Shown here: piece after piece, positions 6,164-53,954 of the stretch
How positions within the stretch are numbered: position 1 is the stretch's first letter
Layout of the letters: every line of letters starts with the position of its first letter
Assembly (NCBI GenBank): GCA_029565065.1
Contig: JAKQOW010000036.1
Location: 59,846-123,845 of the forward strand
DNA: 64,000 nt
Direction: 5' to 3'
DNA from: Acidobacteriota bacterium
GTDB taxonomy: Bacteria > Acidobacteriota > JAAYUB01
Notes under the pieces: model-generated
The model's input: only the letters and a program-made list of their open reading frames with translations
Database searches by the model: none
What the model was told of the DNA's origin: nothing
Program-made: the position numbers and the translations under genes

Positions 6164-7722
6164 CAGTATGGGCCGCTGGTGTCCAGCGGGCGATGGCGTG
6201 GCTGGGGCATGCGGGTCTGCTCCTGGTCCCGCAGGGAATCCAGCAGCCGGTCAAGCGGCTCGTCCGGCGGGGGAGGCTGCGGTGTGGGCGTCGTCGTCGG
6301 TTCCCGGTGGCGGAGCAGCAGTTCCAGGTTCCAGCGGGCCCCGAAATCCGCAGGGGCGCGCTCCAGGGCGAGCCGGTAGGCGGCCGCGGCCGGCTCGGAC
6401 CGGCCCTGGAGATGGCGGCAGCAGCCCAGATTGTATTGCAGGTCACCTGCGCGGGAGCCGGATCCATCCCGACGAACGGCCGTCTCCAGGACGTTGACGG
6501 CCGCGTCGAGCCGGCCGCCCATGGCCAGCGCCGCGGACAGGTTGGCGGCGGCCAGGGCGTGCGGTTCGCTGCCGGCGGGCGATGCCTCCAGGGAGGCCCG
6601 GTAGGCGGCCGCCGCCCGATCGTAGTCGCCGCTGCGGTAGAAGGCGTTGCCCGCCTCGATCTGCCCGGCCCAGCGGCTCACGTCGCCACAGCCGCCCAGG
6701 GCGGCGGGCAGGAGGATCACCAGGAGCGCCATTTCCGCCGCCGGCGCACGAAACTCGCGGTCCCGCAGCACGAGCAAGGCCCCGAGGATGAGCAGAGCGA
6801 GGCCGGCGGCCCAGGGCGAACGGTCGCGGGCCCGCCGGGCCTTGCCGAAGGTGCCGGACACCTGGTTTTTCAGGTTCTCGTTCAGAATTTCCCGCGCGGT
6901 GACTCCGACGGTTTCCAGCCGGTGGTAATCGCCGGCGAGGGACTGGGCCAGGGCCGTGAGGTGCTCTTCCTGAAGACGGGAGCGGACGTACCGGCCGTCG
7001 CGGTCCTTGATCCAGCTTTGGAAGCGGGTGCGCGGATCCTCGATGAATGAGCCATCGGTGGTGCCGATGCCGACCACGATCAGGTTGACGGCCTCCCGGC
7101 GCAGGGCTTCGATGACCCGGGGCGAGGGCGATTTGAAGGACTCGCCGTCCGAGAGGAAGACGACCGCCAGCTGGCGGCCCGACTCCCGCTTGGCGATCAT
7201 CCGTGACAGCGTGTCCATCGGGGCGTCGAAATTGGTGCCCTGACGGTTGAGCACCTCGGGGCTGATCTGGGCCAGCAGCCGGCCGATGATGTCCATGTCC
7301 GCGGTCATGGGGCAGACGGGGAATGCGCCGCCGGCGAACGCGATCAGGCCGGCGCGCGCCCCGGGCAGCTCCTTGAGGAGGCTCAGTGCGAGGAATGAGG
7401 CCGCCTTGAGACGGGACGGCGGCACATCGCGCGCGGTCATGCTGTAGGAACAGTCGAGTACGAAGTAGATGTCCAGCCCGCTCGTGTAAACGACCTGGAC
7501 CTCGTCGCCCCAGCTGGGTCCGGCCAGGGCGATCAGGATGGCGACGGCCGCGGCCGGGATCAGCCACGCCCGCCCGATCCCCGTGCGCCGCCGGCCCGGT
7601 GTCTGCGGCAGGAACCGGCGGCGCGCTGCGTCGGACCGCCGCCACTGCCAGTACAGCCAGGCCAGCCCGGCGGCCAGCGCCAGCCATACCCAACTTAGCA
7701 GGTAAGCGTTCCGAAACATCAT
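6160..7722 (-). CDS. BatA/BatB-like membrane VWA-domain protein fused to a TPR (BatC-like) domain
   Basis: N-terminal MMFRNAYLLSWVWLALAAGL TM (BatA/B-like), VWA MIDAS-like DxSxS (FVLDCSYSM); second TM then TPR-like repeats. Confidence 0.6.
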   Translation of the reverse strand: MMFRNAYLLSWVWLALAAGLAWLYWQWRRSDAARRRFLPQTPGRRRTGIGRAWLIPAAAVAILIALAGPSWGDEVQVVYTSGLDIYFVLDCSYSMTARDVPPSRLKAASFLALSLLKELPGARAGLIAFAGGAFPVCPMTADMDIIGRLLAQISPEVLNRQGTNFDAPMDTLSRMIAKRESGRQLAVVFLSDGESFKSPSPRVIEALRREAVNLIVVGIGTTDGSFIEDPRTRFQSWIKDRDGRYVRSRLQEEHLTALAQSLAGDYHRLETVGVTAREILNENLKNQVSGTFGKARRARDRSPWAAGLALLILGALLVLRDREFRAPAAEMALLVILLPAALGGCGDVSRWAGQIEAGNAFYRSGDYDRAAAAYRASLEASPAGSEPHALAAANLSAALAMGGRLDAAVNVLETAVRRDGSGSRAGDLQYNLGCCRHLQGRSEPAAAAYRLALERAPADFGARWNLELLLRHREPTTTPTPQPPPPDEPLDRLLDSLRDQEQTRMPQPRHRPLDTSGPYW

Positions 7723-39456: not shown

Positions 39457-41592
39457 ATGCGCAACGCGACTATCCGCATCCTGCTGACGGCGGTCCTGGC
39501 GGCCGCCGGCATCCTGGGCGCTCTGGCGGCGGATCCGCCGGCGCTTCAGTATCCCAAGACGGCCACGGTGGACCAGACGGACGACTACCACGGCACCAAG
39601 GTGGCCGACCCGTACCGCTGGCTCGAGGACGACAAGGCCCCGGCCGTGGCCGCCTGGGTGCAGGAGCAGAACGCCCTCACCTTTGGCTACCTGGGCCAGA
39701 TCCCCTACCGCGACGCCATCCGCCGGCGGCTGGAGACGCTGATGAACTACCCCCGCTACAGCGCGCCGTTCCGCGCCGGGGACTACTATTTCTTCTCAAA
39801 GAACGACGGCCTCCAGAACCAGAGCGTGACCTACTACCAGAAGGGCCTGACCGGTGAGCCCAGGGTCTTCCTCGATCCCAACACGCTCTCGAAGGACGGC
39901 ACCACGCGGGCCGGCCTGGCCGGTTTCTCCGAAGACGATCGCTACGTCGTGGTCCGCTACTCGGCGGCCGGCTCCGACTGGGGCGAGCTGAAGGTCATGG
40001 GCGTGGCCAGCCGCCGCGAGCTGTCGGACCACCTGAAGTGGGTCAAGTTCTCCGGCGCGGCCTGGCGCGGCAACGGCTTCTACTACAGCCGCTACGACGC
40101 CCCCAAGCCGGGCGAGGAGCTCACCGCCCGGAACGAGAACCAGAAGATCTACTTCCACAAGCTGGGCGATCCCCAGGCCAAGGACCGCCTCGTCTTCGAG
40201 GACCCCGAGCATCCGCTGCGCTACCACGGCGCCGGCGTGACCGAGGACGGGCGCTACCTCATCATCTCCAGCTCCGAGGGGACCCACGGCAACGAGGTGC
40301 GCGTCCGCGACCTGAAGCGGAAGGGCAGCCAGTTCCAGGTGCTCTGCCCGGGATTCCAGTACAACTACTCGATCATCGACAACGTGGGCGAGCGCTTCCT
40401 CGTCCACACGGACCACGGGGCGCCCAACTACCGGGTGGTCCTGGTCGATCCGCGCCGGCCCGGGCCGGAGAACTGGCAGACCGTCGTCGCCGAGAAGAAG
40501 GACGTGCTGCGCGGCGCCTCGACCGCCGGCGGCAAGCTGTTCTGCACCTACCTTGTGGACGTGTCCACCCGCGTTTACCAGCACGCCCTGGACGGCCGCC
40601 TGGAGAAGGAGATCGAGCTCCCCGGCCTGGGCTCGGCGGGCGGTTTCTACGGCAAGCGGAAGGACACGACCCTGTTCTACACCTTCACCAACTTCACCTA
40701 TCCGCCGGTGATCTTCAAGTACGACCTGAAGACAGGCCGGAGCGAGCTGTTCCGCCGCACTGAGCTCCCCTTCGACTCGACCGGCTTTGAGGCGAAGCAG
40801 GTGTTCTATCCCTCGAAGGACGGCACGAAGATCCCCATGTTCATCGTGCACAAGAAAGGGTTGGCGCTCTCCGGCGACAACCCCACCTACCTGTACGCCT
40901 ACGGCGGCTTCAACGCCAGCATGACGCCGTCGTTCAGCGCCACGATGATGCTCTGGCTGGAAAGCGGCGGCGTCTACGCCATGGCCAACCTGCGGGGCGG
41001 CGGCGAGTACGGCGAGGCGTGGCACCAGGCCGGCATGCGCGAAAAGAAGCAGAACGTGTTCGATGACTTCATCGCTGCGGCCGAGTACCTGATCCGCGAA
41101 AAGTACACCTCGTCGAAGCGGCTGGCCATCGCCGGCGGCTCCAACGGCGGGTTGCTGGTGGGCGCCTGCATGACCCAGCGCCCCGAGCTTTACCAGGTCG
41201 CCCTGCCGGCGGTGGGCGTCATGGATATGCTCCGCTTCCACAAGTTCACCGTTGGGTGGGGCTGGACCGTGGAGTACGGCACCAGCGACGATCCCGCCCA
41301 GTTCAAGTACCTGCAGGCGTATTCACCGCTCCACAACCTGAAGCCGGGCGTGCGCTATCCGGCCACGCTGGTCACCACCGCCGACCACGACGACCGCGTG
41401 GTGCCGGCCCACTCGTTCAAGTTCATCGCCGCACTGCAGGCGTGCCAGGCCGGCCCGGACCCGGTGCTCATCCGCGTCGAGACCCGCTCCGGCCACGGCG
41501 CCTCTTCGCTCACCAAGGGCCTCGACCTCCAGGCCGACGCCTGGGCGTTCACGTTCTGGAACATGGGGGTGAAGCCCAAAATCGGTGAATAG
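39457..41592 (+). CDS. Prolyl oligopeptidase (S9A family), secreted
   Basis: Signal peptide; N-terminal beta-propeller region ([22 protein letters not shown]); catalytic domain [11 protein letters not shown] (Ser), [16 protein letters not shown] (Asp), RSGHGAS (His). Confidence 0.85.
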
Positions 41593-41720: not shown

Positions 41721-41809
41721 CACCTGGAACCTGCGAACCTGAGAACCTGCGGACCTGCGACCTGGAACCTGCGAACCTGGAACCTGAGAACCTGGAACCT
41801 GTGAACCTG
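41721..41809. repeat. Tandem 7/8-mer array (N)GAACCTG x~12
   Basis: cacctg gaacctg cgaacctg agaacctg cggacctg cgacctg gaacctg cgaacctg gaacctg agaacctg gaacctg tgaacctg. Confidence 0.75.
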
Positions 41810-41942
41810 AGAATCGGTGAACGATGACAGGCACGATCGCCCGGCGGGCAGGCGGGAGGTACCGCGACCGGGAGGGAGCGGCGCGAAAGCCCACCCCGCG
41901 AAACCAGGGGAGCCCGCGACACCATTCCATCGCCCGCGGCAG

Positions 41943-41981
41943 CGAGTTTCACGGCGCCCGTCCGGCGGACGGGCGCTACTG
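41943..41981 (+). repeat. 39-bp direct repeat copy 1 (contains 9-bp-stem palindrome GCCCGTCCG-GC-GGACGGGC)
   Basis: cgagtttcacggcgcccgtccggcggacgggcgctactg; 38/39 identical to copy at 42121. Confidence 0.7.
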
Positions 41982-42120: not shown

Positions 42121-42159
42121 CGAGTGTCACGGCGCCCGTCCGGCGGACGGGCGCTACTG
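42121..42159 (+). repeat. 39-bp direct repeat copy 2
   Basis: cgagtgtcacggcgcccgtccggcggacgggcgctactg. Confidence 0.7.
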
Positions 42160-42221: not shown

Positions 42222-42503
42222 GTGATCAAGAGCTTCGTTGACAAGCATACGGCGGAACTGTTCACGACCGGCCGGTCCAGGCGATTGCCGCCAGACATGG
42301 TGCGTCGGGCGAGAAGAAAGCTCGAGTCCGTCGATCTGGCCGCGCGTCTGGATGACCTTCGGGTTCCTCCGGGCAATCGCCTCCACAAACTCGGCGGAGA
42401 CCGGGAAGGACAGCATGCGATCACCATCAACGACCAGTGGCGCATCTGCTTCCGGTTCGTGGAGGGCGCTGCCTACGATGTTGAAGTGACGGATTATCAC
42501 TGA
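42222..42503 (+). CDS. higB: HigB toxin (RelE/ParE superfamily mRNA interferase)
   Basis: GTG start; product MIKSFVDKHTAELF...LHKLGGDREGQHAITINDQWRICFRFVEGAAYDVEVTDYH closely parallels plasmid/Vibrio HigB (MIKSF..., KLHPLKGDREGYWSI..., ...DYH). Confidence 0.85.
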   Translation: MIKSFVDKHTAELFTTGRSRRLPPDMVRRARRKLESVDLAARLDDLRVPPGNRLHKLGGDREGQHAITINDQWRICFRFVEGAAYDVEVTDYH

Positions 42504-42516
42504 AGCGAGGTGCGGG

Positions 42517-42831
42517 ATGAGCATCCTGAACACGAGACGGAAGATCGTTCGCCCCATCCACCCGGGGGAGATACTTCGGGAGGACTTCCTGCCTGACTAT
42601 GGCCTGACGGCTTCCGGTCTCGCGGCGGCGCTGGGCGTTTCGCGACAGACCGTGAATGAGCTGCTGCGCGAGCGTCGGTCGGTCAGCCCGGAGATGGCGC
42701 TCCGGCTTTCGCGTCTGTTTGGCAACTCCCCCGAGTTCTGGCTGAATGCTCAGCGTACGGTCGACCTCTGGGATGCAGCCCAATCTATCGGACGGGAGGT
42801 CGAGCGGATCAAGCCTTTGTCTGTGGCCTGA
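42517..42831 (+). CDS. higA: HigA antitoxin (XRE-family HTH)
   Basis: IHPGEILREDFL and HTH LAAALGVSRQTVNELLRERRSVSPEMALRLSRLFGNSPEFWLNAQ, typical HigA. Confidence 0.85.
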   Translation: MSILNTRRKIVRPIHPGEILREDFLPDYGLTASGLAAALGVSRQTVNELLRERRSVSPEMALRLSRLFGNSPEFWLNAQRTVDLWDAAQSIGREVERIKPLSVA

Positions 42832-42906: not shown

Positions 42907-43848
42907 TTGCGGAGTATCGATTTGGAAGAAAAAACTGAAATTACGACCTTGCTTGAGAGAATTGCGATCGCGCTTGAGCGAATAGCAGACTTGCTTGCCA
43001 GACCAGACCAATCAGAAGATTCGTCTGGTCTGGTTGATTCAGAACCTCCTATTGCTCCCGAACCAACAGAACCTGCGCCTTCTACCAACGATATTACCTG
43101 GCTGCGGGACTTTCTTGCTTCACGGGGGATTTCAATAAAGACCATTCCTCAGGAGCAAGAGAGCGATGAAACTCTCGACAAGATAGCCTTGTTCATTGGG
43201 AACAGGCTAGAATCAGTCAATAGTGTTCTCGATTCCATCAAGGCGAATATGAATGTTGGGAGACCGTTCAGTCTGAATCTGAGAAACGAGTCCCAACAAA
43301 CCGTTGCAGATACAACCAATCTGTGTACAAATCTCTATAACATCGCCTTTCTTACAGCATACTACTATCAGAAATCCCCAGCCTATCAGCTTTATGCAAC
43401 CCCAAGCACATCGCCCAGAGCATTGAATTTTTATTCCGGACAATGGTTGGAGCGATTCATCAAGATCCAAGCCGTCTCGCTACTCAGAAGCAAATCGCTT
43501 GAATTCTCCTATATCTGCAATGCTCAAATTTCATTGCCAAAGGGGGATGATTTTGAACTGGATATGTTGTTTGAGGCAGAGGGAGAAGTGTTCTGGCTAG
43601 AAGCGAAAACTGGTGATTATAGAAGGCATATCGAAAAATATTCCAAGATGTCCAAGACTTTAGGTCTAGACCGCTCACATACCTTTATGATATTGGCGGA
43701 TGGCTCGGTAACTGACGCTCTGGCGCGCGACTTGGGTAATTTGTTTGGAATGACTGTGGCAAGGGTTGAGAAATTTGCAGAGCAATTGACCAAAGTGCTA
43801 CCCAAAAACCGCAATGAGACAGTTCAAGGTCGAGAAATATCACCATGA
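42907..43848 (+). CDS. Hypothetical low-GC protein with C-terminal PD-(D/E)xK nuclease-like motif
   Basis: No in-frame ATG near start (TTG/alternative start); Pro-rich linker; GDDFELDMLFEAEGEVFWLEAKTG fits D...E-x-K restriction-endonuclease-like core; GC well below genome average. Confidence 0.5.
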   Translation: MRSIDLEEKTEITTLLERIAIALERIADLLARPDQSEDSSGLVDSEPPIAPEPTEPAPSTNDITWLRDFLASRGISIKTIPQEQESDETLDKIALFIGNRLESVNSVLDSIKANMNVGRPFSLNLRNESQQTVADTTNLCTNLYNIAFLTAYYYQKSPAYQLYATPSTSPRALNFYSGQWLERFIKIQAVSLLRSKSLEFSYICNAQISLPKGDDFELDMLFEAEGEVFWLEAKTGDYRRHIEKYSKMSKTLGLDRSHTFMILADGSVTDALARDLGNLFGMTVARVEKFAEQLTKVLPKNRNETVQGREISP

Positions 43849-43965: not shown

Positions 43966-45432
43966 ATGACCATGTTTGAACAAGCTTTCAAGAATATTGA
44001 CGATGTGCTTTGGAAGGATGCCGGGTGTACCAGTGAACTGGATTACACCGAGCAGACTTCCTGGCTGCTATTCCTGAAATACCTCGATGCACTGGAGGCC
44101 GACCGTGCCACGGCTGCCGCCCTGAACGGCAAGACCTACACCCACATTCTGGATAAACCATACCGCTGGGGCTCCTGGGCCGCGCCGAGGGGCAAGGATG
44201 GCTCGATTGACCACAACACCGCTCTAACCGGCGACGACCTGATCCAGTTCGTCAACGGCAAGCTTTTCCCTTACCTGCACGGCTTCAAGCAGAAGGCTAG
44301 CGGGCCGAACACGGTCGAATACAAGATCGGCGAGATTTTCGGCGAGATCAAGAACCGCATCCAGAGCGGCTACAACCTACGCGAGGTCATTGACCAAATT
44401 GATGAACTGCGCTTCGCGTCGCAAGTTGAGAAGCACGAGCTTTCGCACCTGTACGAGGCGAAGATCAAGAACATGGGCAACGCCGGGCGCAACGGCGGCG
44501 AGTATTACACCCCGCGCCCGCTCATCCGCGCCATCGTGGCGGTGGTCGCGCCCAAGCTCGGCGAGACCATCTGCGACCCGGCGGTCGGCTCGGCGGGCTT
44601 CCTGTGCGAGGCATTCGAATATCTCAAGGCTCAGAACCCGAAGCGCACCACCGCCCAGGACCGCGCCTTGCAGGAGCGCACCTTCTTCGGCAAGGAAAAG
44701 AAGTCGCTGGCCTACGTCATCGCGATCATGAACATGATCCTGCACGGCATCGAGGCGCCCAACATCCTCCACGTCAACACGCTGGCCGAGAACCTGGCCG
44801 ACGTGCAGGAAAAGGACCGATTCGACATCATCCTCGCCAATCCGCCTTTTGGCGGCAAGGAGCGCAAGGAGGTCCAGCAGAACTTCCCAATTCGCACCGG
44901 TGAAACGGCTTTTCTCTTCCTCCAGCACTTCATCAAGGTACTCAAGGCCGGCGGCCGGGCGGGGATCGTCATCAAGAATACGTTTCTGAGCAACACCGAC
45001 AATGCCTCCGTAAGCCTGCGGCGGAAACTGCTGGAGGAATGCAACCTGCATACCGTGCTCGACTGCCCCGGCGGCACGTTCCAGGGCGCGGGCGTGAAGA
45101 CCGTGGTGCTGTTTTTCGAGAAGGGCGCGAAGACCAGGAAGGTGTGGTACTACCAACTCGACCCCGGCCGCAGCCTCGGCAAGACCAACCCGCTCAATGA
45201 TGACGACCTCGCCGAGTTCGTGCAGCTCCAGAAGACCTTCGCCGACTCACCCAAGAGCTGGAGCGTTGACGCCAATTATATTGATCCGACCACTTTCGAC
45301 CTCTCCGTGAAGAACCCCAACGGCGGCGAGACCGTGACCCACCGCAGTCCGCAGGAGATCATGGAAGAAATCGCCGTCCTAGACATCGAAAGCGCTGAGG
45401 TGCTGGAGAAGATCAGGGGGCTGCTGAAATGA
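43966..45432 (+). CDS. hsdM: Type I restriction-modification system, DNA methyltransferase subunit M (N6-adenine)
   Basis: HsdM N-domain; SAM-binding DPAVGSAGFL; catalytic NPPFG motif. Confidence 0.9.
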   Translation: MTMFEQAFKNIDDVLWKDAGCTSELDYTEQTSWLLFLKYLDALEADRATAAALNGKTYTHILDKPYRWGSWAAPRGKDGSIDHNTALTGDDLIQFVNGKLFPYLHGFKQKASGPNTVEYKIGEIFGEIKNRIQSGYNLREVIDQIDELRFASQVEKHELSHLYEAKIKNMGNAGRNGGEYYTPRPLIRAIVAVVAPKLGETICDPAVGSAGFLCEAFEYLKAQNPKRTTAQDRALQERTFFGKEKKSLAYVIAIMNMILHGIEAPNILHVNTLAENLADVQEKDRFDIILANPPFGGKERKEVQQNFPIRTGETAFLFLQHFIKVLKAGGRAGIVIKNTFLSNTDNASVSLRRKLLEECNLHTVLDCPGGTFQGAGVKTVVLFFEKGAKTRKVWYYQLDPGRSLGKTNPLNDDDLAEFVQLQKTFADSPKSWSVDANYIDPTTFDLSVKNPNGGETVTHRSPQEIMEEIAVLDIESAEVLEKIRGLLK

Positions 45433-46571
45433 AGAAGGGGTGGGAAACGAGGCGTATCGATGAGCTTTGCATAGTGGTCGCCGGGCAATCGCCGGAGGGG
45501 AAGTTCTATAACTCCGAGGGTCGGGGCCTTCCGTTCTATCAAGGTAAAAAGGACTTTGGGGAAAAGTTCATCGAGGCACCCACCACTTGGACAACGCAGA
45601 CGACCAAGATTGCCAAACAGGGCGATATCTTGATGTCCGTCCGCGCACCTGTTGGCCCTGTGAATTTTTCCACCGAGGAAATCTGCATTGGGCGCGGATT
45701 AGCTGCGATACGCTGCGGGACACAACTGAATCGAGATTTTCTTTTCTACCAGTTGCTCCACTTACAGCCTGAGATTGCTGGGAAAGAAGGCGCAGTGTTC
45801 GCATCAATCAACAAATCCGAAATCGAAGCCTTGCCGCTCGCGTTTACCCCGCTCCCCGAACAGCAGCGGATCGTGGGGGTATTGGATGAAACTTTTGCTG
45901 GTCTGGCCACCGCCCAAGCCAACGCCGAAAAGAACCTCCTGAACGCCCGCGCCCTATTCGAAAGCCACATGAATGACGTGTTCAGCAAGCGGGGCGAAGG
46001 GTGGGTGGAGAAGACGTTGGGGAAAATCGGCAAGGTCTCCATGTGCAAGAGAATCTTCAAGGAGGAGACGACAGCGACCGGAGACATTCCATTCTACAAG
46101 ATTGGGACTTTCGGAAAAGAGCCCGATGCATTCATTTCAAGCCAAACCTACAATGAATACAGGGCGAGATACCCCTTTCCTAAAAAAGGCGATATTCTTA
46201 TCTCGGCGTCGGGAACAATCGGGCGACGCGTCAGATACGACGGTGAACCCGCATATTTTCAGGACTCGAATATCGTCTGGATTGATAACGATGAAAGACA
46301 GGTGTCGAACGACTACCTGTATCACTTCTACGGAGCCTGTGAGTGGAACTCGACGAAAGGCGCTACCATATCGCGACTCTACAATGACAATCTGAGGCAA
46401 ATCGCTATTGCATTCCCTGAATCGAGTCAGGAGCAGCGGCGGATTGTCACCCAACTCGACTCCCTCTCCGCCGAAACCCGCCGCTTGGCCGCCATCTACG
46501 AGCGGAAGCTGGCGGCGCTGGAGACGCTGAAGAAATCGCTTCTACATCAGGCGTTTAACGGAGAACTGTGA
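45429..46571 (+). CDS. hsdS: Type I restriction-modification system, specificity subunit S
   Basis: Overlaps hsdM by ATGA; two target-recognition domains separated by a conserved central helix (LPEQQRIVGVLDETFAGLATAQANAEKN) and C-terminal helix (QEQRRIVTQLDSLSAETRRLAAIYERK). Confidence 0.85.
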   Translation: MKKGWETRRIDELCIVVAGQSPEGKFYNSEGRGLPFYQGKKDFGEKFIEAPTTWTTQTTKIAKQGDILMSVRAPVGPVNFSTEEICIGRGLAAIRCGTQLNRDFLFYQLLHLQPEIAGKEGAVFASINKSEIEALPLAFTPLPEQQRIVGVLDETFAGLATAQANAEKNLLNARALFESHMNDVFSKRGEGWVEKTLGKIGKVSMCKRIFKEETTATGDIPFYKIGTFGKEPDAFISSQTYNEYRARYPFPKKGDILISASGTIGRRVRYDGEPAYFQDSNIVWIDNDERQVSNDYLYHFYGACEWNSTKGATISRLYNDNLRQIAIAFPESSQEQRRIVTQLDSLSAETRRLAAIYERKLAALETLKKSLLHQAFNGEL

Positions 46572-46572
46572 C

Positions 46573-47496
46573 ATGAAAAGCTACTACCGAGTCATGTTGG
46601 GTGAAAAGAGCAAGTATGCCGAGGAGTGTTTTGCAGCGAACTGCATTGCCGCCGGCTTCATCCCTGATCAGAACTTGAAAGGAAAGTTGCCCGATCAATG
46701 GCGCACCTTCAATAAACAGTTTATTCCCGTGTTCCTCGCCGCTCATCCGGAGAAAACAAAAATCGGTGCAGGGCTAGCTTGTGGCGCGTTGTGGACGGTA
46801 TGCAAAGGGATGCAAAATGGCGATATAGTCTTATGTCCTGACGGCACGGGCAGATACCGGGCCGGTGAAATCAGTGGCGATTACTTTTATGAGCCCAGCA
46901 AGCACTTGTGCCATAGACGGCCTGTGACTTGGCTGAACGTGATGATTGACCGGGCCACGATGAGTGAGCCGCTGCGCAAATCCACCGGTTCAATCGGCAC
47001 GGTGAGCAACATCACGCTGCACCGCGATGAAATTGAAAAGCACACCGGCGGCGTTTCAACTCCGAAACTAATTTCCACCGACACCACAGTTGAGGACGCC
47101 TCTGCTTTCGCATTAGAAGAGCATTTGGAGGATTTCCTCGTCAAAAATTGGTCTCACACCGAACTCGGCAAAGATTACACAATTTACGAGGAGGACGGAG
47201 AGAAAGCACAGCAATACCAGACCGACACAGGACCGTTGGACATCCTCGCGATCAGCAAGGACAAAAAACATCTGTTGGTTGTGGAGTTGAAAAAGGGACG
47301 GGCCAGTGATCTGGTGGTCGGACAGACTCTCCGCTACATGAGCTTCGTCCAGGATGAATTGGCTGAGGAGGGACAGACAGTGCGGGGGTTGATAATCGCT
47401 CACGAGGACGATCAAAAAATCCGGCGCGCCCTCAGCATGACACCCAACATTTCCTTCTATCGCTACCAAGTCAGTTTCAAGTTAATGAAGGGATGA
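46573..47496 (+). CDS. Embedded cassette gene A: hypothetical protein with C-terminal PD-(D/E)xK (NucS/Mrr-cat-like) nuclease motif
   Basis: GPLDILAISKDKKHLLVVELKKGRASDLVVGQTLRYMSF ... VRGLIIAHEDD fits D-x(n)-E-L-K nuclease core; N-terminal ~150-aa domain of unknown function; starts 2 nt after hsdS stop. Confidence 0.6.
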   Translation: MKSYYRVMLGEKSKYAEECFAANCIAAGFIPDQNLKGKLPDQWRTFNKQFIPVFLAAHPEKTKIGAGLACGALWTVCKGMQNGDIVLCPDGTGRYRAGEISGDYFYEPSKHLCHRRPVTWLNVMIDRATMSEPLRKSTGSIGTVSNITLHRDEIEKHTGGVSTPKLISTDTTVEDASAFALEEHLEDFLVKNWSHTELGKDYTIYEEDGEKAQQYQTDTGPLDILAISKDKKHLLVVELKKGRASDLVVGQTLRYMSFVQDELAEEGQTVRGLIIAHEDDQKIRRALSMTPNISFYRYQVSFKLMKG

Positions 47497-47497
47497 C

Positions 47498-47593
47498 ATG
47501 AACGAAGCTGAAACGAGAGCCGAGCATATTGATCCCGCGCTGGCGGCGTTGAAGAAGTCGCTGCTGCTCCTGGCCTTTGCAGGAGAACTGTGA
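47498..47593 (+). pseudogene. Chimeric remnant: 51-nt hsdR 5' fragment (MNEAETRAEHIDPALAA) fused to 45-nt hsdS 3' fragment (LKKSLLLLAFAGEL-stop)
   Basis: 47498-47548 is 47/51 nt identical (all 4 differences synonymous) to hsdR start at 48391-48441. 47549-47593 parallels the hsdS 3' end at 46527-46571 (LKKSLLHQAFNGEL-stop). Confidence 0.8.
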
Positions 47594-48375
47594 TGAATAT
47601 GAAGAAATACTGCTACGACACAGAACCGATAGCCGGAATTGAGAAGCTGTGTGAGCGAATGACGGGGAAGGCGTTACAGTCTCCGTATCGTTCCACTGTG
47701 CCTTTACTGAGCCTCGTTGAACACAGTCAGCCTGAATGGCATTCGCTATTGGCGTCGTTGGGGACGCCGCCTGACCGAACGGTCCACTTTGAATACTGCA
47801 TCGCCTCGCCAAAGCCTGGAGGAAATCCGTCACAGACAGACGCCCTGCTGATGTCAGATTCAACTGTGTGGGCCGTTGAGGCGAAGTGGACAGAACCTCG
47901 GTATGAAACAGTGGCGAAAAGAATAAGCAAACCAGAGTCGGACGGCGCTGATCCGCGAACCACGGTTGATGGCTGGCTGAAATATCTCCAGCCGTTTACA
48001 ACACGAGATTTGCGCGTCGATGACTTTTTGGATGTGGTATATCAAGTATTGCATCGCGCCGCATCGGCGTGTGCTGTCGCAACCGATCTGCAACTCTCGC
48101 CGCACCTTGTGTATCTGCATTTTCATCCATCCCCGCTGGAGAGTTCCGCGACGACCGATCAGTATGTCTCGGACCTTCAGCATCTATATGCGTTGCTCGG
48201 CAATCCCTCCACCCTGAAGATCACCGTGGTTGAAATGCCGCTCAAGCCGACTGCGGAATTTGATGCCATCAAGGGTCTGGATAAGCGAGATCCAGGATCT
48301 GCCGCTGTGGTGAAAGCGGCGCTGTGCAAAGAGCCATTATTTACTTTCGGAAGCCCGATCATTACGCGATCATGA
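47593..48375 (+). CDS. Embedded cassette gene B: hypothetical protein with PD-(D/E)xK restriction-endonuclease-like core
   Basis: HFEYCIASPKPGGNPSQTDALLMSDSTVWAVEAKWTE contains E...D...E-A-K pattern; start overlaps remnant stop (TGATG). Confidence 0.55.
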   Translation: MNMKKYCYDTEPIAGIEKLCERMTGKALQSPYRSTVPLLSLVEHSQPEWHSLLASLGTPPDRTVHFEYCIASPKPGGNPSQTDALLMSDSTVWAVEAKWTEPRYETVAKRISKPESDGADPRTTVDGWLKYLQPFTTRDLRVDDFLDVVYQVLHRAASACAVATDLQLSPHLVYLHFHPSPLESSATTDQYVSDLQHLYALLGNPSTLKITVVEMPLKPTAEFDAIKGLDKRDPGSAAVVKAALCKEPLFTFGSPIITRS

Positions 48376-48390
48376 GGTCAGATCTCACGC

Positions 48391-50718
48391 ATGAACGAAG
48401 CCGAAACCAGAGCCGAGCACATTGACCCCGCGCTGGCGGCGGCGGGCTGGGGCGTCGTGGAGGGCAGCCGCGTGAGGCGGGAGTTTCCCATCACGCCGGG
48501 GCGCATCGAGGGGCTGGGCCGGCGCGGAAAGCCGCTGACCGCCGATTACGTTCTGGAATACCGCAACCGCAAACTGGCCGTAATCGAGGCCAAGGCGTGG
48601 GATCAAGAGTTGACCGAAGGAGTGGCGCAGGGCAAGAACTACGCGGGCAAGCTGCAGGTGCGCTTTGTCTATGCCACAAACGGGCGGGGCATCTACGCGA
48701 TAGACATGCAGACGGGCAAGGAAGGCGAGATCGCCGCCTACCCAACCCCGGACGAACTCTGGGCGATGACCTTTGCCGAGGAGAACGCCTGGCGGGACCG
48801 GTTCGCGGCGGTGCCGTACGAGGACAAGGGCGGCTCGCATCCGACGCGTTACTACCAGGACATCGCCATCGAGCGGGTGATGCAGGCCATTTCGGAGAAC
48901 CGGACGCGCATCCTGCTGACGCTGGCCACCGGAACGGGGAAAACCTTCATCGCATTCCAGATCGCGTGGAAGCTGTTCCATGCGCGCTGGAACCTCTCCC
49001 GCGAACCGACGCGCCGGCCGCGCATCCTGTTCTTGGCCGACCGGAACATCCTGGCGAACCAGGCTTACAACGCCTTCTCCGCCTTCCCCGAGGACGCGCT
49101 GGTGCGGATCGAGCCGGGCGACATCCGCAAGAAAGGCAAGGTGCCGAAGAACGGCAGCCTGTTTTTCACCATCTTCCAGACGTTCATGAGTGGTCCGCCC
49201 AAGGACGGCCGACCGTCACCCTATTTCGGCGAATACCCGCCGGACTTCTTCGACTTTATCGTGATTGATGAGTGCCATCGCGGCGGGGCGAACGACGAGA
49301 GCACCTGGCGTGGCATCCTGGACTACTTCGCGCCCGCCGTGCAGCTCGGCCTCACCGCCACACCCAAGCGCGATGAGAACGTGAACACCTACCGCTATTT
49401 CGGCGAGCCGGTCTATATGTATTCGCTCAAGGACGGGATCAACGACGGCTTCCTGACCCCGTTCAAGGTGAAGCAGATCCAGACCACGCTGGACGAGTAC
49501 GTGTACACGCCGGACGACACGGTGATCGAAGGCGAGATCGAGGAGGGCAAGCGGTACGAAGAGGCGGACTTCAACCGCATCATCGAGATCAGGAAACGCG
49601 AGGAATACCGGGTCAGAATCTTCATGGATCTGATCAACCAGAACGAGAAGACGCTGGTGTTCTGCGCGAACCAGGCCCACGCCCTGGCCGTGCGCGACCT
49701 CGTCAACCAGCTGAAGACCAGCAAGGACCCGAACTACTGCCAGCGGGTGACGGCGAACGACGGTGAGCTGGGCGAGCAGCATTTGCGCGACTTCCAGGAC
49801 AACGAGAAGACGATCCCGATGGTCCTGACCACGTCACAGAAGCTCTCGACGGGGGTGGACGCTCGGAACATCCGCAACATCGTCCTGATGCGGCCCATCA
49901 ACCGGCTCATCGAGTTCAAACAGATCATCGGGCGCGGCACCCGGCTCTATGACGGCAAAGATTACTTCACGATCTACGACTTCGTGAATGCGCACGAGCA
50001 TTTCAGCGATTCTGGGTGGGACGGCGAGCCGATGGCCCCGGAACCGCACGAGATCTATCCGCCGCACGAACCGAGCCTGGCAGGCGAAGTGCGGGAACCC
50101 AGGGAGAAATATCCAAAACGCCAGCGGGTGAAAGTGAAACTGGCGGACGGCAAGGAGCGCACCATCCAGCACATGATGATGACGAGCTTCTGGCATCCCG
50201 ACGGCACGCCCATGTCCGCGCAGCAGTTCATGGAACTGCTCTTCGGAAAGCTCCCGTACTTCTTCAAGGACGAAGCCGAACTCCGGGCCATTTGGAGTGC
50301 GCCTGACACGCGCAAAAAGTTATTGCAGGGCTTGGCCGAGAAGGGCTTCGGGCATGACCAACTGGCTGAGATGCAGACGATCATCGACGCCGAGAAGAGC
50401 GATCTGTTCGACGTGCTCGCCCATGTTGCCTACGCCTTGCCGCCCGTCACGCGTGAAGTCCGCGCCGCGAATGCGAGAGTTCACATCAATACCCGTTTCA
50501 GCGACAAGCAGAAGGTGTTCCTCGATTTCGTGCTCCAGCATTACATCACGGTCGGCGTGGAAGAGCTCGATCAAGAAAAGCTTACCCCGCTGCTCCTGCT
50601 CAAGTACCACAATTCCCTGGCGGATGCCGTTGCCGACCTGGGCGGCCGGCCCGAAGAGATAAGCAAAGCCTTCGCCGGGTTCCAGAAATATCTCTATCAG
50701 CAAACGTCTGCGGCATGA
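48391..50718 (+). CDS. hsdR: Type I restriction enzyme, R subunit (nuclease plus SF2 helicase)
   Basis: N-terminal nuclease motif LAVIEAKAW; Walker A LATGTGKT; DEAH-like VIDECHR; motif VI QIIGRGTRL. Confidence 0.9.
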   Translation: MNEAETRAEHIDPALAAAGWGVVEGSRVRREFPITPGRIEGLGRRGKPLTADYVLEYRNRKLAVIEAKAWDQELTEGVAQGKNYAGKLQVRFVYATNGRGIYAIDMQTGKEGEIAAYPTPDELWAMTFAEENAWRDRFAAVPYEDKGGSHPTRYYQDIAIERVMQAISENRTRILLTLATGTGKTFIAFQIAWKLFHARWNLSREPTRRPRILFLADRNILANQAYNAFSAFPEDALVRIEPGDIRKKGKVPKNGSLFFTIFQTFMSGPPKDGRPSPYFGEYPPDFFDFIVIDECHRGGANDESTWRGILDYFAPAVQLGLTATPKRDENVNTYRYFGEPVYMYSLKDGINDGFLTPFKVKQIQTTLDEYVYTPDDTVIEGEIEEGKRYEEADFNRIIEIRKREEYRVRIFMDLINQNEKTLVFCANQAHALAVRDLVNQLKTSKDPNYCQRVTANDGELGEQHLRDFQDNEKTIPMVLTTSQKLSTGVDARNIRNIVLMRPINRLIEFKQIIGRGTRLYDGKDYFTIYDFVNAHEHFSDSGWDGEPMAPEPHEIYPPHEPSLAGEVREPREKYPKRQRVKVKLADGKERTIQHMMMTSFWHPDGTPMSAQQFMELLFGKLPYFFKDEAELRAIWSAPDTRKKLLQGLAEKGFGHDQLAEMQTIIDAEKSDLFDVLAHVAYALPPVTREVRAANARVHINTRFSDKQKVFLDFVLQHYITVGVEELDQEKLTPLLLLKYHNSLADAVADLGGRPEEISKAFAGFQKYLYQQTSAA

Positions 50719-50790
50719 TAGGTGCGAGAAGATAATAGGTTAACAAACAGTTACAGCGGACGGCTCGCAGCGCGGCCCTCCGCTTAACCG

Positions 50791-51522
50791 ATGGATGAGT
50801 GTTCAGATGGGAAAGGAATGATAACAAAGTGGCTACATATCAGTGAACTGGGGGGCGATCCCTGGATTTTGCCGATCTGGACGGCTGTGAATGAAGCTGT
50901 GAAATCTGGTAAAGCCACCGATCTTCAGCCCGAAGTGTACCGTCTTGGATTACACGTCTCACTACGACTGAATATCTTGCCTCGGGTAGTCAAACGGGTG
51001 AATTCCAACACATTGCTCTTGTATAGAATCATCAGAGAACACGGACCCGAGTATGTTTCGACTGAAGCAATTAGGGGATACGCATTTCCTGTCGATGATG
51101 ATCTGAAGTACTCATTGTTAGCTGATATCGATGCCCTGCTCTTTGAACTCAATTCGGTTTGTGAACTTATGAAGAATCTTTTTGGGTTATTGCAGGCGCA
51201 TATTGGCCGGCCGATACATAAAGATAAGATTGGCAAAGCTTTAAATGATGTACTTTCTCAAAGTACCCGGAATGCAAATTGGTTTGCAATGTTGGATGAG
51301 CATAGAAATTTTTTTATGCACAATGGTGCTCCGTACATAGCCGTGGATCTTTCGAATGAGCCGGTGGAATTGGAAATTCTGATTATGAAAGAAAATATAA
51401 AGAGCTTTACAGATCCAGCAAAATTCGTTTCACTTTCGCAGATCAATTCTATTGTCCAAGGGTTTATAGATTCGAAACAAAAGCTGCAAGACTATTTGAT
51501 ATCACTCTTCAAACAGGAGTAA
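50791..51522 (+). CDS. Hypothetical AT-rich protein with Rx4H (HEPN-like) motif, downstream of hsdR
   Basis: Lowest GC in the window; EHRNFFMHNG contains R-x4-H; alternative start ATG 50818 with AAAGGA RBS. Confidence 0.45.
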   Translation: MDECSDGKGMITKWLHISELGGDPWILPIWTAVNEAVKSGKATDLQPEVYRLGLHVSLRLNILPRVVKRVNSNTLLLYRIIREHGPEYVSTEAIRGYAFPVDDDLKYSLLADIDALLFELNSVCELMKNLFGLLQAHIGRPIHKDKIGKALNDVLSQSTRNANWFAMLDEHRNFFMHNGAPYIAVDLSNEPVELEILIMKENIKSFTDPAKFVSLSQINSIVQGFIDSKQKLQDYLISLFKQE

Positions 51523-51541
51523 GCGCGAACCAGCAAATCCA

Positions 51542-52213
51542 GTGAACAGCTTTCAAATCCACCAGACCACGCGCCGCGTGGCGGTTGATTCTCGGCGTTT
51601 GAAGGCAGCTGCAGATATCATGTCTGACAACAAGCTTATTCTTCATCCCATCGATCCCATGGCAAGCCTACCGTCGGTGTCCGCGGTACGGATCCGCCTC
51701 TCTGAGATTGGTCTCATCGGGCCGCCCATCGAGTATTACGGAAAGACACATTATCTTCAGGGTCCGCGATTTGAAGCGCTCGTGCCGTTCGCCCATTCGC
51801 ATCGGTCCGTAGTCCTCACTTCAATTGATCCCACCTTCTTCACACCACGCATCACCGACAGTCGCAGCATCGTTTCCATAGAAATCTGCCAACCGACCGA
51901 CGCTATCGAATTTCTTGGGGCGGGCAACGTAGAAAGCCCCTGCTGTCCCTCGTGTGACTTCGAGATCAAGGATTGGGCGGCCTTGGTCTCGACGTGGTGT
52001 AACAACAAATGCACATACCAGTGGACTTGTCCGGGTTGTCAGCGCAGCTGGAGACCCTGGCATCTCGATTGGCGCGGCACGAACGGTTTTGGTCGCTTCG
52101 CCATTGCCTTCTGGAACGTCCATCAAAGCGAAGCCATACCCAGCCAGGAACTTCTAGAGGTTGTTCACGAAGTCTGCGGCACGCCGTGGACCTTCTTCTA
52201 CTATCGGCTTTAG
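51542..52213 (+). CDS. Hypothetical protein with C-terminal Cys-rich (zinc-binding-like) region
   Basis: CCPSCDF...CNNKCTYQWTCPGCQRSW; start uncertain (51542 or 51620). Confidence 0.4.
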   Translation: MNSFQIHQTTRRVAVDSRRLKAAADIMSDNKLILHPIDPMASLPSVSAVRIRLSEIGLIGPPIEYYGKTHYLQGPRFEALVPFAHSHRSVVLTSIDPTFFTPRITDSRSIVSIEICQPTDAIEFLGAGNVESPCCPSCDFEIKDWAALVSTWCNNKCTYQWTCPGCQRSWRPWHLDWRGTNGFGRFAIAFWNVHQSEAIPSQELLEVVHEVCGTPWTFFYYRL

Positions 52214-52669
52214 GTCCTGCAATATGTTCCAGGCATGCAGTGAACTGCCACTGTTGACTGGCAGAAGGTCGTATTTATGGAACCCATGCAATTCAATACT
52301 ATCGCGGTCAGAACGACTTCGTCGTGATGCTATCAATGTGAGCCGGCGGTTGCTGAGAGACGCTGACGGAGTGGCGTGTCATCTCAGGTGAGGCGCCGCG
52401 AGGACCCCTCCCGCGTCGACGCCGCTACCACTCCAACAACAGTCGTCTTCGCAGTAATGGTTGGGAAGATGCAGTGCGGGTTGACACGGATGGGTTCAGA
52501 TGGTAAAGGACGATAACGATATGGCCATACCTGATTTTGGGAGTGCGATCTGTACACGTCTGATGTTTTGAGCTGACTGTAAGGATCACGCCGACCATGA
52601 GGCGCCCGACGCACTCGCTCTTGGAGCAACCTACCTGAGGATGGATTAAAGACGTGATGGAGACATGAC

Positions 52670-53200
52670 ATGCGCAAGGAGTACGGGAAAGCGCTCCGGC
52701 AGTATTTCGCCAAGCAGATGAAGGAGCGACTCCCGGAATTCAAAGAGGAGACGGTGCAGTCCGTGTACCTGTGGCCCGGGCAGCGGGCGTTCGGCCGGTC
52801 CGTCTCCGGTTCGCTGAAGTGCTGGATCGTGCTCAGCCCCAGCCCCAAGGACTACGACGAGTTCACGGTCCTGATCGGATGGTCGACGTGGGGGCGCTAT
52901 CCGGAGCTATCGGTGATCCCGTCCATCCAATCGCCGTCGCCGGACCGGGCGGAGTTCAGCCAGCCGGAGTACCTCACGCGACTCCCGCAGCTCTGGACCC
53001 AGCGGGACGAATGGTGGGTGATTCAGAAGTTCGAGCCGGCGCTCACCGTGGAGCAGATGACGGCCCGGATGGCGCCCATCCCGGCGCCGGCGGCCGAGGC
53101 GAAAGTGATCCCTCGCGTGGACGACGCCATCGACCAGGTGATCAAGATCGGCATCCCTTATCTTTCCGAGTTCGTCAACACAAGGGAAGGAAGCGAATGA
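52670..53200 (+). CDS. Hypothetical protein (176 aa)
   Basis: High-GC ORF with consistent codon usage; no recognisable motif. Confidence 0.45.
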   Translation: MRKEYGKALRQYFAKQMKERLPEFKEETVQSVYLWPGQRAFGRSVSGSLKCWIVLSPSPKDYDEFTVLIGWSTWGRYPELSVIPSIQSPSPDRAEFSQPEYLTRLPQLWTQRDEWWVIQKFEPALTVEQMTARMAPIPAPAAEAKVIPRVDDAIDQVIKIGIPYLSEFVNTREGSE

Positions 53201-53285
53201 CCCGAAGTATCCGGCGGCGCGCCCGGCGCGCGCCGCCGCGGCGCCGGCGTCGGTCCTCAACTCAGACTGAAGGAGTGACACATCC

Positions 53286-53954
53286 ATGGCCATGACTCTC
53301 CAGGAAGCGCTGGCGCGGCTCGAGGCAATGGGGGACGAGAAGGTGCGGAAGCACAACCGCAAGAGCGGCGCCGGCGACGACCAGTACGGCGTCCGGCTGG
53401 GCGACATCCGCAAGCTCGCTGCGACGATCAAGGCCGACCATGCACTCGCCCTGGCGCTCTGGGAAACGGGGAACATCGACGCCCGGCTCCTGGCCGTCCT
53501 GCTGCTCAAGCCGAAGGAACTGTCCCGCGATCAGGTGGACCGGCTGGTGCGCTCCGGCGACTTCGCCCAGTTGGCCGACTGGCTGAACGCCTACGTGGTC
53601 CAGAAACATCCCGAGAAGGAATCGCTCCGCCAGCGGTGGCTGGCGGACGCCGACCCGTGGGCGGCGCGCGCCGGCTGGAGCCTGACCTACGAACGGATCA
53701 CCCGGGATCCGGCCGGGCTCGACCTGCCGGCGCTCCTGGACCGGCTCGAGGCGGAGATGGGGGGCGCCCCGCCGCCCGCGCAGTGGACCATGAATTTCTG
53801 CCTCGGCGGGATCGGCATCCACTTCCCCGAGCATCGCCGGCGGGCGGTGGCCATCGGCGAGACGCTCGGGCTCTACCGCGACTACCCGGTCTCCAAGGGC
53901 TGCACCTCGCCGTACGTCCCGGCCTGGATCGCCGAGATGGTGCGCCGGCTTTAG
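53286..53954 (+). CDS. DNA alkylation repair enzyme (AlkD/AlkC-like HEAT-repeat glycosylase family)
   Basis: GAAGGAG RBS; helical repeat protein with ...DIRKLAATIKADHALALALWETGNIDARLLAVLLL... characteristic of the DNA_alkylation family. Confidence 0.65.
   Translation: MAMTLQEALARLEAMGDEKVRKHNRKSGAGDDQYGVRLGDIRKLAATIKADHALALALWETGNIDARLLAVLLLKPKELSRDQVDRLVRSGDFAQLADWLNAYVVQKHPEKESLRQRWLADADPWAARAGWSLTYERITRDPAGLDLPALLDRLEAEMGGAPPPAQWTMNFCLGGIGIHFPEHRRRAVAIGETLGLYRDYPVSKGCTSPYVPAWIAEMVRRL

Follow-up and report, generated by a model that had tools for sequence, protein, structure and literature searches.

What does a short, AT-rich gene lying directly behind a type I restriction-modification (R-M) operon encode, and does it act together with the gene that follows it? 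The question is raised by a 64-kb stretch of an Acidobacteriota genome (assembly GCA_029565065.1, contig JAKQOW010000036.1; the whole stretch is hereafter called the window), in which two genes on the plus strand, here named gene A and gene B, follow hsdR. HEPN RNases are common suicide or dormancy effectors in phage defence, and their hallmark is a metal-independent RNase activity that leaves a 2',3'-cyclic phosphate. A first-pass annotation of the window had pointed to the sequence EHRNFFMHNG in gene A and proposed a HEPN-like RNase appended to the R-M operon. Here we report a comparative analysis of both genes, according to which gene A probably encodes a HEPN-superfamily member of a new, unclassified family, with E110, R163 (followed by N164), and H168 as its predicted metal-independent RNase site.

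The starts in the list of open reading frames (ORFs) on which the first-pass annotation was based, 50791 and 51542, had to be given up. Homologue alignments lack the 9-codon extension of the listed ORF of gene A and the 26-codon extension of that of gene B and place the starts at M10 (50818) and M27 (51620), and the deposited NCBI protein records of this metagenome-assembled genome (MAG) agree in length with the corrected products of 234 aa and 197 aa. Residue numbers refer to these two forms unless stated otherwise. For gene A, no fewer than 249 homologues were found, each roughly 232-236 aa long and annotated as a hypothetical or unnamed protein, and the family is spread over the Proteobacteria, Desulfobacterota, Nitrospirota, Firmicutes, and Acidobacteriota. 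Four homologues come from cultured strains, namely Cupriavidus necator C39, Cohnella laeviribosi, and two Paenibacillus species. The plasmid collection contained a single homologue, carried by a Cupriavidus necator megaplasmid beside an ISL3 transposase. At this locus (L056, positions 6585-7693, from plasmid p1 of strain C39), the 230-aa homologue has the motif in the form CRNFVAH, a 130-aa ORF ends 23 bp upstream, and the ISL3-type transposase lies downstream.

According to the published description of HEPN domains, helix 3 ends in an Rx4-6H motif whose arginine is followed by a polar residue (N, D, or H), and helix 2 contributes an acidic residue that is conserved and lies close to the motif (PMC3710099). 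EHRNFFMHNG is present in gene A as annotated. By our estimate, about 0.3 single R-x4-H motifs are expected by chance per protein of this size; the one in gene A is nevertheless meaningful because its R and H are invariant both in 108 homologues and in a wider set of 24 sequences. The wider set reaches down to 25% identity and adds members from Paenibacillus, Cohnella, Cupriavidus, Nitrospinota, and Acidobacteria, taken from genome contigs and a plasmid. The residues invariant among the 108 homologues are W5, W16, R50, E110, W155, R163, N164, H168, P172, and Q224, and the sole invariant columns of the wider set (25-45% identity) are E110, W155, R163, H168, and G215. The residue after R163 is N in nearly all sequences of the wider set and H, T, or G in single ones. 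Conservation of the motif R and H had been set beforehand as a check on the HEPN proposal, which came through it intact.

A model of the gene A protein was predicted by AlphaFold2 from the 108-sequence alignment with high confidence (pLDDT, the predicted local distance difference test, 90.7; pTM, the predicted template modelling score, 0.85). It begins with an unstructured yet conserved Trp-rich segment, which is followed by a short helix (18-29), two long helices (38-72 and 94-128), a kinked third helix (135-147/154-161/163-166), a beta-hairpin (173-190, with a strand at 173-177), and a last helix (206-229). Its core is an all-alpha four-helix up-down bundle, so that structure prediction, another check proposed at the outset, gave a result compatible with the HEPN fold. 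The motif forms the short helix 163-166, after helix 154-161 and before strand 173-177; as judged from secondary structure and without three-dimensional superposition, this is the position of the motif in HEPN domains. N164 provides the polar residue, and the invariant E110 in helix 94-128 provides the acidic residue of helix 2. The position four residues after E110 is neither K nor R, and the Ex3[KR] form of the HEPN helix-2 acid is thus absent. In the predicted model, the placement of the motif, N164, and E110 agrees with the published HEPN description. The structures 1ylm, 1wwp, 2hsb, and 3jrt are treated as HEPN domains in the same source, where helix 4 is said to be often distorted by non-helical residues, 3jrt included (PMC3710099). 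In gene A, the hairpin insert belongs to the loop that links the motif to the last helix, and the remark on helix 4 does not directly apply to it.

The gene A protein itself has zero matches at E values up to 1 in Pfam, NCBIfam, PADLOC, and PHROG, and the search for HEPN and abortive-infection profiles called for by the first-pass annotation therefore yielded no curated match. Weak links to HEPN appeared when every family member was compared with the 24,736 Pfam families, although all of them remained under threshold. The family matched by most members was PF18730 (HEPN_Cthe2314), with 13 of the 108 homologues and a best E = 0.0023, and 3 of 10 divergent members matched it as well. Residues 105-217 of one homologue (L039) align to positions 51-163 of the 174-position profile, and those of another (P0030) align over residues 110-186. 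PF18739 (HEPN_Apea) matches the motif region of one further divergent member, and Csx1_HEPN is matched by one family member. We take these sub-threshold profile matches as support for the HEPN assignment and not as proof; that the one recurring Pfam family is a HEPN family still matters. Foldseek likewise gave its top probabilities for gene A to HEPN toxins (0.5-0.6), none of them significant. As a separate observation, the lowest Pfam E-value in the family (6.6e-05) belongs to PF20278, the CTD2 family of ABC-three-component systems, matched by 2 of the 108 members; a literature search on this domain gave nothing useful for gene A.

Several points weigh against the assignment and against a role in defence. 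Scores for PF18730 reach at most 18.3 bits, short of the gathering cut-off of 27.1, no HEPN model reaches its curated threshold, and a spurious family, PIG-H, was matched by 8 members in the same Pfam scan. Foldseek found no match with E < 0.1 in the PDB, and profile searches of the PDB with the 108-sequence and the widened 24-sequence profiles retrieved no HEPN chain. (The prefoldin and R3H-like proteins that these profiles did match were rejected as chance matches.) The spatial closeness of E110, R163, and H168 is suggested by a secondary-structure map of the model, not by coordinates. Many loci of the family are no obvious defence islands, no relative was found in the phage and viral collections or in PADLOC, and the defence role is without direct evidence. 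Finally, an RNase toxin that has no antitoxin needs a control mechanism, and none can be pointed to.

The genomic contexts of the family were examined in about 41 loci, about 30 of them with a full-length gene A, and the ORFs within 5 kb were compared all-against-all. No cluster of neighbours occurs in more than 4 of the about 41 loci. A permissive comparison of the directly adjacent same-strand ORFs revealed no common upstream gene and only one common downstream pair, and no similarity was found between a 288-aa and a 313-aa neighbour of gene A, or between either of them and the 313-aa gene of the window. The neighbour families are mixed and include GNAT acetyltransferases, radical SAM enzymes, reverse transcriptases, helicases, and histidine kinases. 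Nucleotidyltransferases are missing from the most frequent neighbour families, and a partner of the HEPN-MNT kind was thus not found. An integron-type tyrosine recombinase is encoded within 5 kb of the homologue in three loci (L007, L013, and L043). In L007 and L013, attC-like imperfect palindromes (ATAAC...GTTAT) stand at both ends of gene A, and the site in L007 folds significantly better than shuffled sequences. Yet another homologue (L004) lies among HigB-like (Gp49), PIN, and RES genes. Since no neighbour is conserved and cassette contexts occur, gene A is a single-gene module, complete in itself, horizontally mobile, and without a dedicated partner.

R-M genes accompany a minority of the copies, about 4 of the about 30 full-length loci. 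In Ferrovum, hsdS and hsdR of a type I R-M operon flank the homologue, which is separated from the next gene by 3 bp; R-M helicase genes lie near the homologues in L051 and L016, and in the latter a 69%-identical homologue follows a reverse transcriptase gene and a DUF2971 gene beside an R-M system. The idea that gene A is a HEPN gene appended to R-M operons thus fits the window and Ferrovum, and it does not fit most copies elsewhere, including those in integron cassette arrays: the R-M linkage seen here is one of several landing sites and no rule. As side observations, the reverse transcriptase (RVT_1, with PADLOC DRT/UG-type matches), DUF2971, and gene A homologue in L016 (5779-8699) are co-oriented and closely spaced and could form a composite defence module. 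In five loci (L041, L045, L050, L038, and L047), the homologue is frameshifted, interrupted by stops, or truncated, and the one in L038 ends at residue 156, directly before the RNxxxH motif; such copies could reflect true decay of a costly gene or MAG assembly error.

The window copy itself stands out by its base composition, as the first-pass annotation had noticed. With a GC content of 41.6% (50818-51522; 41.7% over 50791-51522) against a window mean of 64.6%, gene A is the most AT-rich of the genes checked, and the lowest-GC 700-bp windows of the whole 64 kb all fall within 50751-51750. The annotation had described both genes as low in GC; this was only weakly true of gene B, whose 55% is under the window mean yet close to the values of hsdS and of the genes inserted into the R-M operon. 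Because of its GC content, gene A is regarded as a foreign, AT-rich copy that landed 99 bp downstream of hsdR, and no integrase is found near it. We detected neither a terminator-like nor a plus-strand promoter-like site in the 99-bp spacer; therefore, read-through from the R-M operon is the simplest reading of how gene A is probably expressed.

Comparison with characterized HEPN systems places gene A close to several of them and inside none. The minimal HEPN toxins of the DUF86/HepT type (YutE, 1ylm; HepT of HEPN-MNT, 5yep, 7ae2, and 8xdj) share with it the R-N-x3-H where helix 3 ends and are likewise small single-domain proteins. In contrast to them, gene A is about 100 residues longer, has a Trp-rich N-terminal segment (W5, W16, and W21) and a beta-hairpin between the motif and the last helix, shows no sequence-level match to them, and has no adjacent MNT nucleotidyltransferase antitoxin. 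The Cthe_2314-like HEPN proteins (PF18730) are matched repeatedly by the gene A family from helix 2 through the motif; they keep the Rx4-6H motif, and no gene associations were detected for them (PMC3710099). With family scores below the gathering value and no match from the window protein, they are a neighbouring family at best. The integron cassette protein Vpc_cass2 (PDB 3jrt) has no detectable sequence similarity to gene A, and, unlike Vpc_cass2 and Esos of the Vibrio cholerae superintegron, which we compared by its description, the window gene A lies behind hsdR and not in an integron. Esos, a cassette of one gene whose product has a HEPN-like domain and nothing else, protects V. cholerae from phage (bioRxiv 10.1101/2024.07.02.601686). 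The anticodon nucleases PrrC and RloC are HEPN-type RNases encoded in or beside type I R-M operons, and the Ferrovum homologue occupies an equivalent slot; however, they have a large N-terminal ABC (ATP-binding cassette) ATPase domain (PMC3710099), whereas gene A has no NTPase match, and most of its homologues are not R-M linked. Gene A thus shows the HEPN hallmarks that can be examined in silico, yet lies outside every curated HEPN family. These HEPN features, together with the lack of a curated family, of an MNT partner, and of an ATPase domain, lead us to regard it as a family that is new, within a kind already known.

By analogy with the catalytic scheme proposed for HEPN RNases (PMC3710099), H168 would act as the catalytic base, R163 and N164 would stabilise the transition state, and E110 would assist. 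Like other HEPN enzymes, the protein probably works as a dimer. Gene A most likely encodes a latent RNase that would cleave RNA of the cell or of a phage upon infection or under stress, and this cleavage would probably lead to growth arrest or abortive infection, in line with the suicidal RNase role proposed for R-M-linked HEPN proteins (PMC3710099) and with proposals for integron-borne ones. Copies of the gene occur as integron cassettes, within toxin-antitoxin and defence islands, and in few cases inside or beside type I R-M operons. Candidates for the element that holds the enzyme in check are the Trp-rich N-terminus, the hairpin insert, and low read-through expression; for the copies embedded in R-M operons, a further candidate is that they touch the restriction complex, as PrrC does. 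A more far-reaching form of this proposal makes gene A an uncharted single-protein anti-phage system, that is, a self-silencing HEPN RNase without antitoxin, whose Trp-rich N-terminus or hairpin would serve as lid or sensor, and which, spread by integron cassettes and by insertion into R-M operons, would take over as a back-up when restriction has failed; we advance it tentatively and think it rather doubtful.

Gene B had been credited with a zinc-binding module on the basis of three cysteine motifs, CCPSC, CNNKC, and CPGC. All three are present, and the outer two stood up to comparison: the four cysteines of CPxC...CPxC (C135, C138, C163, and C166 in the numbering of the 223-aa form) are invariant in 93 and 102 homologues, whereas CNNKC is not conserved among them. 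The two CxxC knuckles of a zinc ribbon are found across the family, 58 of the 102 members give weak matches to Pfam Zn_ribbon_8, and other zinc-ribbon models are matched below threshold by many; CPxC...CPxC is accordingly predicted to form a zinc ribbon. The AlphaFold model (pLDDT 90.2, confident except for loop 60-85) has an alpha/beta fold into which the ribbon is inserted. The protein has no match in curated profile libraries, and tandem C2H2 zinc fingers, returned by a profile search of the PDB, were rejected as homologues, as they match through Cys spacing only. A word-indexed search gave 6 relatives and HMMER with their profile 622 representative clusters (50% identity), while a metagenome scan gave no confirmed match. 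The subclade to which the window gene B belongs carries PFAHSHR (residues 56-62, 51785-51805) in place of the TFLGCSP present in about 90% of the family, and it is without the near-invariant Cys at position 85; possibly, a second metal or catalytic site was lost or remodelled in it.

The first-pass annotation implied that the two genes form a functional pair, and a two-gene toxin-antitoxin or abortive-infection module with gene B as zinc-ribbon antitoxin or sensor would indeed account for genes that are adjacent, co-oriented, 97 bp apart, enclosed together by a 17-nt direct repeat, and found together in sibling contigs. Those contigs are near-identical, so that their synteny carries little weight, and outside them a B-like neighbour occurs at 0 of about 30 other gene A loci. 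Seen from gene B, the picture is the same: a 74%-identical homologue has no A-like gene in front of it, and its DNA similarity extends only from about 27 bp before the ATG to the stop codon, ending at the gene edges; three distant members of the family, from sulfur-oxidising Gammaproteobacteria, stand alone, often between oppositely oriented housekeeping genes; and the family is as large as the 622 clusters mentioned above. The comparative data largely refute the pairing, and we consider it very improbable. Because the 74%-identical homologue has no A-like gene before it and family members stand alone, gene B is, as far as sequence comparison can tell, an independent gene and an unrelated passenger, neither antitoxin nor cofactor of gene A. 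A further rival reading, that gene A is a generic helical bundle with a structural or binding role and a conserved R and H without catalytic function, would agree with the absence of a curated HEPN model over threshold, of a PDB sequence match to a HEPN chain, and of a significant Foldseek match. We hold it to be quite unlikely, as the invariant polar residues at 25% identity are exactly E, R, and H with the spacing R-N-x3-H, these residues occupy the HEPN topological positions, and the sole recurring family among all those in Pfam is a HEPN family.

If gene A is a HEPN RNase, its role may differ from that of a free-standing defence effector. It could be a minimal PrrC-like guard without the ATPase, silenced by HsdMSR and freed as an RNase by a phage anti-restriction protein. 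The position just past hsdR, across a spacer without promoter-like or terminator-like site, the Ferrovum homologue tightly packed on the genes that follow it, the R-M helicase genes in L016 and L051, and the frequent presence of PrrC/RloC-type HEPN nucleases in R-M operons (PMC3710099) all speak for such a guard. However, few of the full-length loci are R-M linked, no R-M genes lie within 5 kb of the copies in integron cassettes and of other copies, so that the protein must function without R-M, and a single domain of 234 aa leaves no ABC ATPase; a guard function of this type is therefore judged unlikely. Similarly low is the probability that we attach to an RNase serving stress dormancy or the maintenance (addiction) of a cassette or element instead of phage defence. 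For HEPN domains carried by integrons, such a role has been put forward (PMC3710099); the family does occur in integron arrays and beside toxin-antitoxin genes (HigB/Gp49, PIN, and RES), and several copies are frameshifted or truncated, as costly genes would be. But no antitoxin partner was found that would make addiction work, the evidence fits defence equally well, and Esos, the closest tested precedent, gave phage protection. We therefore retain the HEPN RNase of a new family as the preferred reading of gene A, with a probable defence role.

Genes A and B occupy the tail of an island of about 11 kb that is low in GC and set in an Acidobacteriota genome of 65% GC; the features of the island are collected in Table 1.

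Table 1. Features of the low-GC island and its surroundings, in positions of the window.
Feature	Positions	Strand	Remarks
higB/higA	42222-42831		toxin-antitoxin pair
313-aa gene	42907-43848		AT-rich
hsdM	43966-45432		type I R-M
hsdS	45429-46571		type I R-M
PADLOC PDC-S02 / NucS-like nuclease	46573-47496		inserted gene
DUF6946	47590-48375		inserted gene
hsdR	48391-50718	+	type I R-M; Pfam ResIII and EcoEI_R_C; PADLOC REase_I, E = 1e-137
Hairpin	50748-50790		in the 99-bp spacer between hsdR and gene A; no T run
Direct repeat GTTCAGATGGGAAAGGA, 17 nt	50801-50817	+	directly 5' of the gene A start
Gene A	50818-51522	+	234 aa; HEPN-like, predicted metal-independent RNase; start in ORF list 50791
E110 codon	51145-51147	+	invariant acidic residue; second long helix (94-128)
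Rx4H motif codons, R163-N164-F-F-M-H168	51304-51321	+	predicted active site; R codon 51304-51306, H codon 51319-51321
Gene B	51620-52213	+	197 aa; alpha/beta protein with inserted zinc ribbon (predicted); start in ORF list 51542
Gene B zinc ribbon (predicted), CPSC (C109, C112)...CPGC (C137, C140)	51944-52039	+	invariant Cys
176-aa ORF	52670-53200		no family
DNA alkylation repair, peroxiredoxin, katG	from 53286		high-GC housekeeping genes

The order hsdR, gene A, gene B, and 176-aa ORF is conserved in the sibling contigs (L008-L011), which are without both genes inserted between hsdS and hsdR. The 176-aa ORF, which accompanies genes A and B there, is preceded by a 456-bp untranslated gap and has no family match in the Pfam, NCBIfam, PADLOC, and PHROG libraries. 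In front of gene A, the spacer hairpin has a folding energy of -15.8 kcal/mol (z = -2.96), which is equalled by 3 of 200 shuffled sequences. By our reading, it is without the canonical attC core order RYYYAAC...GTTRRRY, and it is neither a canonical attC site nor a terminator; apart from this hairpin, the attC test on the window found no significant folding in the spacers flanking gene A, and an Rfam scan of 50000-53500 gave nothing significant. The 17-nt direct repeat has a second copy at 52494-52510, 3' of gene B and identical at 16 of the 17 positions (GTTCAGATGG(G/T)AAAGGA), so that the pair encloses both genes; about 0.01 such pairs are expected by chance in 2.9 kb, by our estimate. The repeat may mark an insertion boundary or may merely be a common ribosome-binding region.

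Other parts of the island bear traces of their own. The two genes inserted between hsdS and hsdR are enclosed by duplicated junction DNA (46515-46571 / 47537-47593 and 47497-47548 / 48390-48441), in which the 3' end of hsdS is repeated at 77% identity and the 5' start of hsdR at 92%; this looks like a cassette-style gain of the PDC-S02/NucS-like and DUF6946 genes at the hsdS/hsdR junction. The 313-aa gene between higBA and hsdM is, with a GC content of 44.9%, the second most AT-rich in the window, and its sole matches are to the PADLOC models CARF4--CARF_PDDEXK and Csx1, all weak (E = 8e-06 and weaker); it may be another passenger of the defence island. Upstream of higB (41722-41822) lie short tandem repeats with units of the type ACCTG(N)GAACC. 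A GC-rich palindromic element of 39 nt occurs twice (41943-41981 and 42121-42159, 97% identity), with a third copy, 64% identical, at 40614-40652; it resembles repetitive extragenic palindromic (REP) elements and may mark the edge of the island.

As to what these findings mean, the gene A family lies outside Pfam, NCBIfam, PADLOC, and PHROGs, and it would therefore be missed by defence annotation pipelines that use those libraries. Gene B adds a large family with a confident model and no functional clue. To a specialist, the result will be solid yet unsurprising, because HEPN nucleases beside R-M systems and in integrons were already predicted in 2013, and gene A would be one more case of such nucleases riding with both. 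As a HEPN family, it offers a testable candidate for a compact single-gene RNase effector, and the sole part of its biology that could teach something new is how a HEPN RNase without a partner would be restrained.

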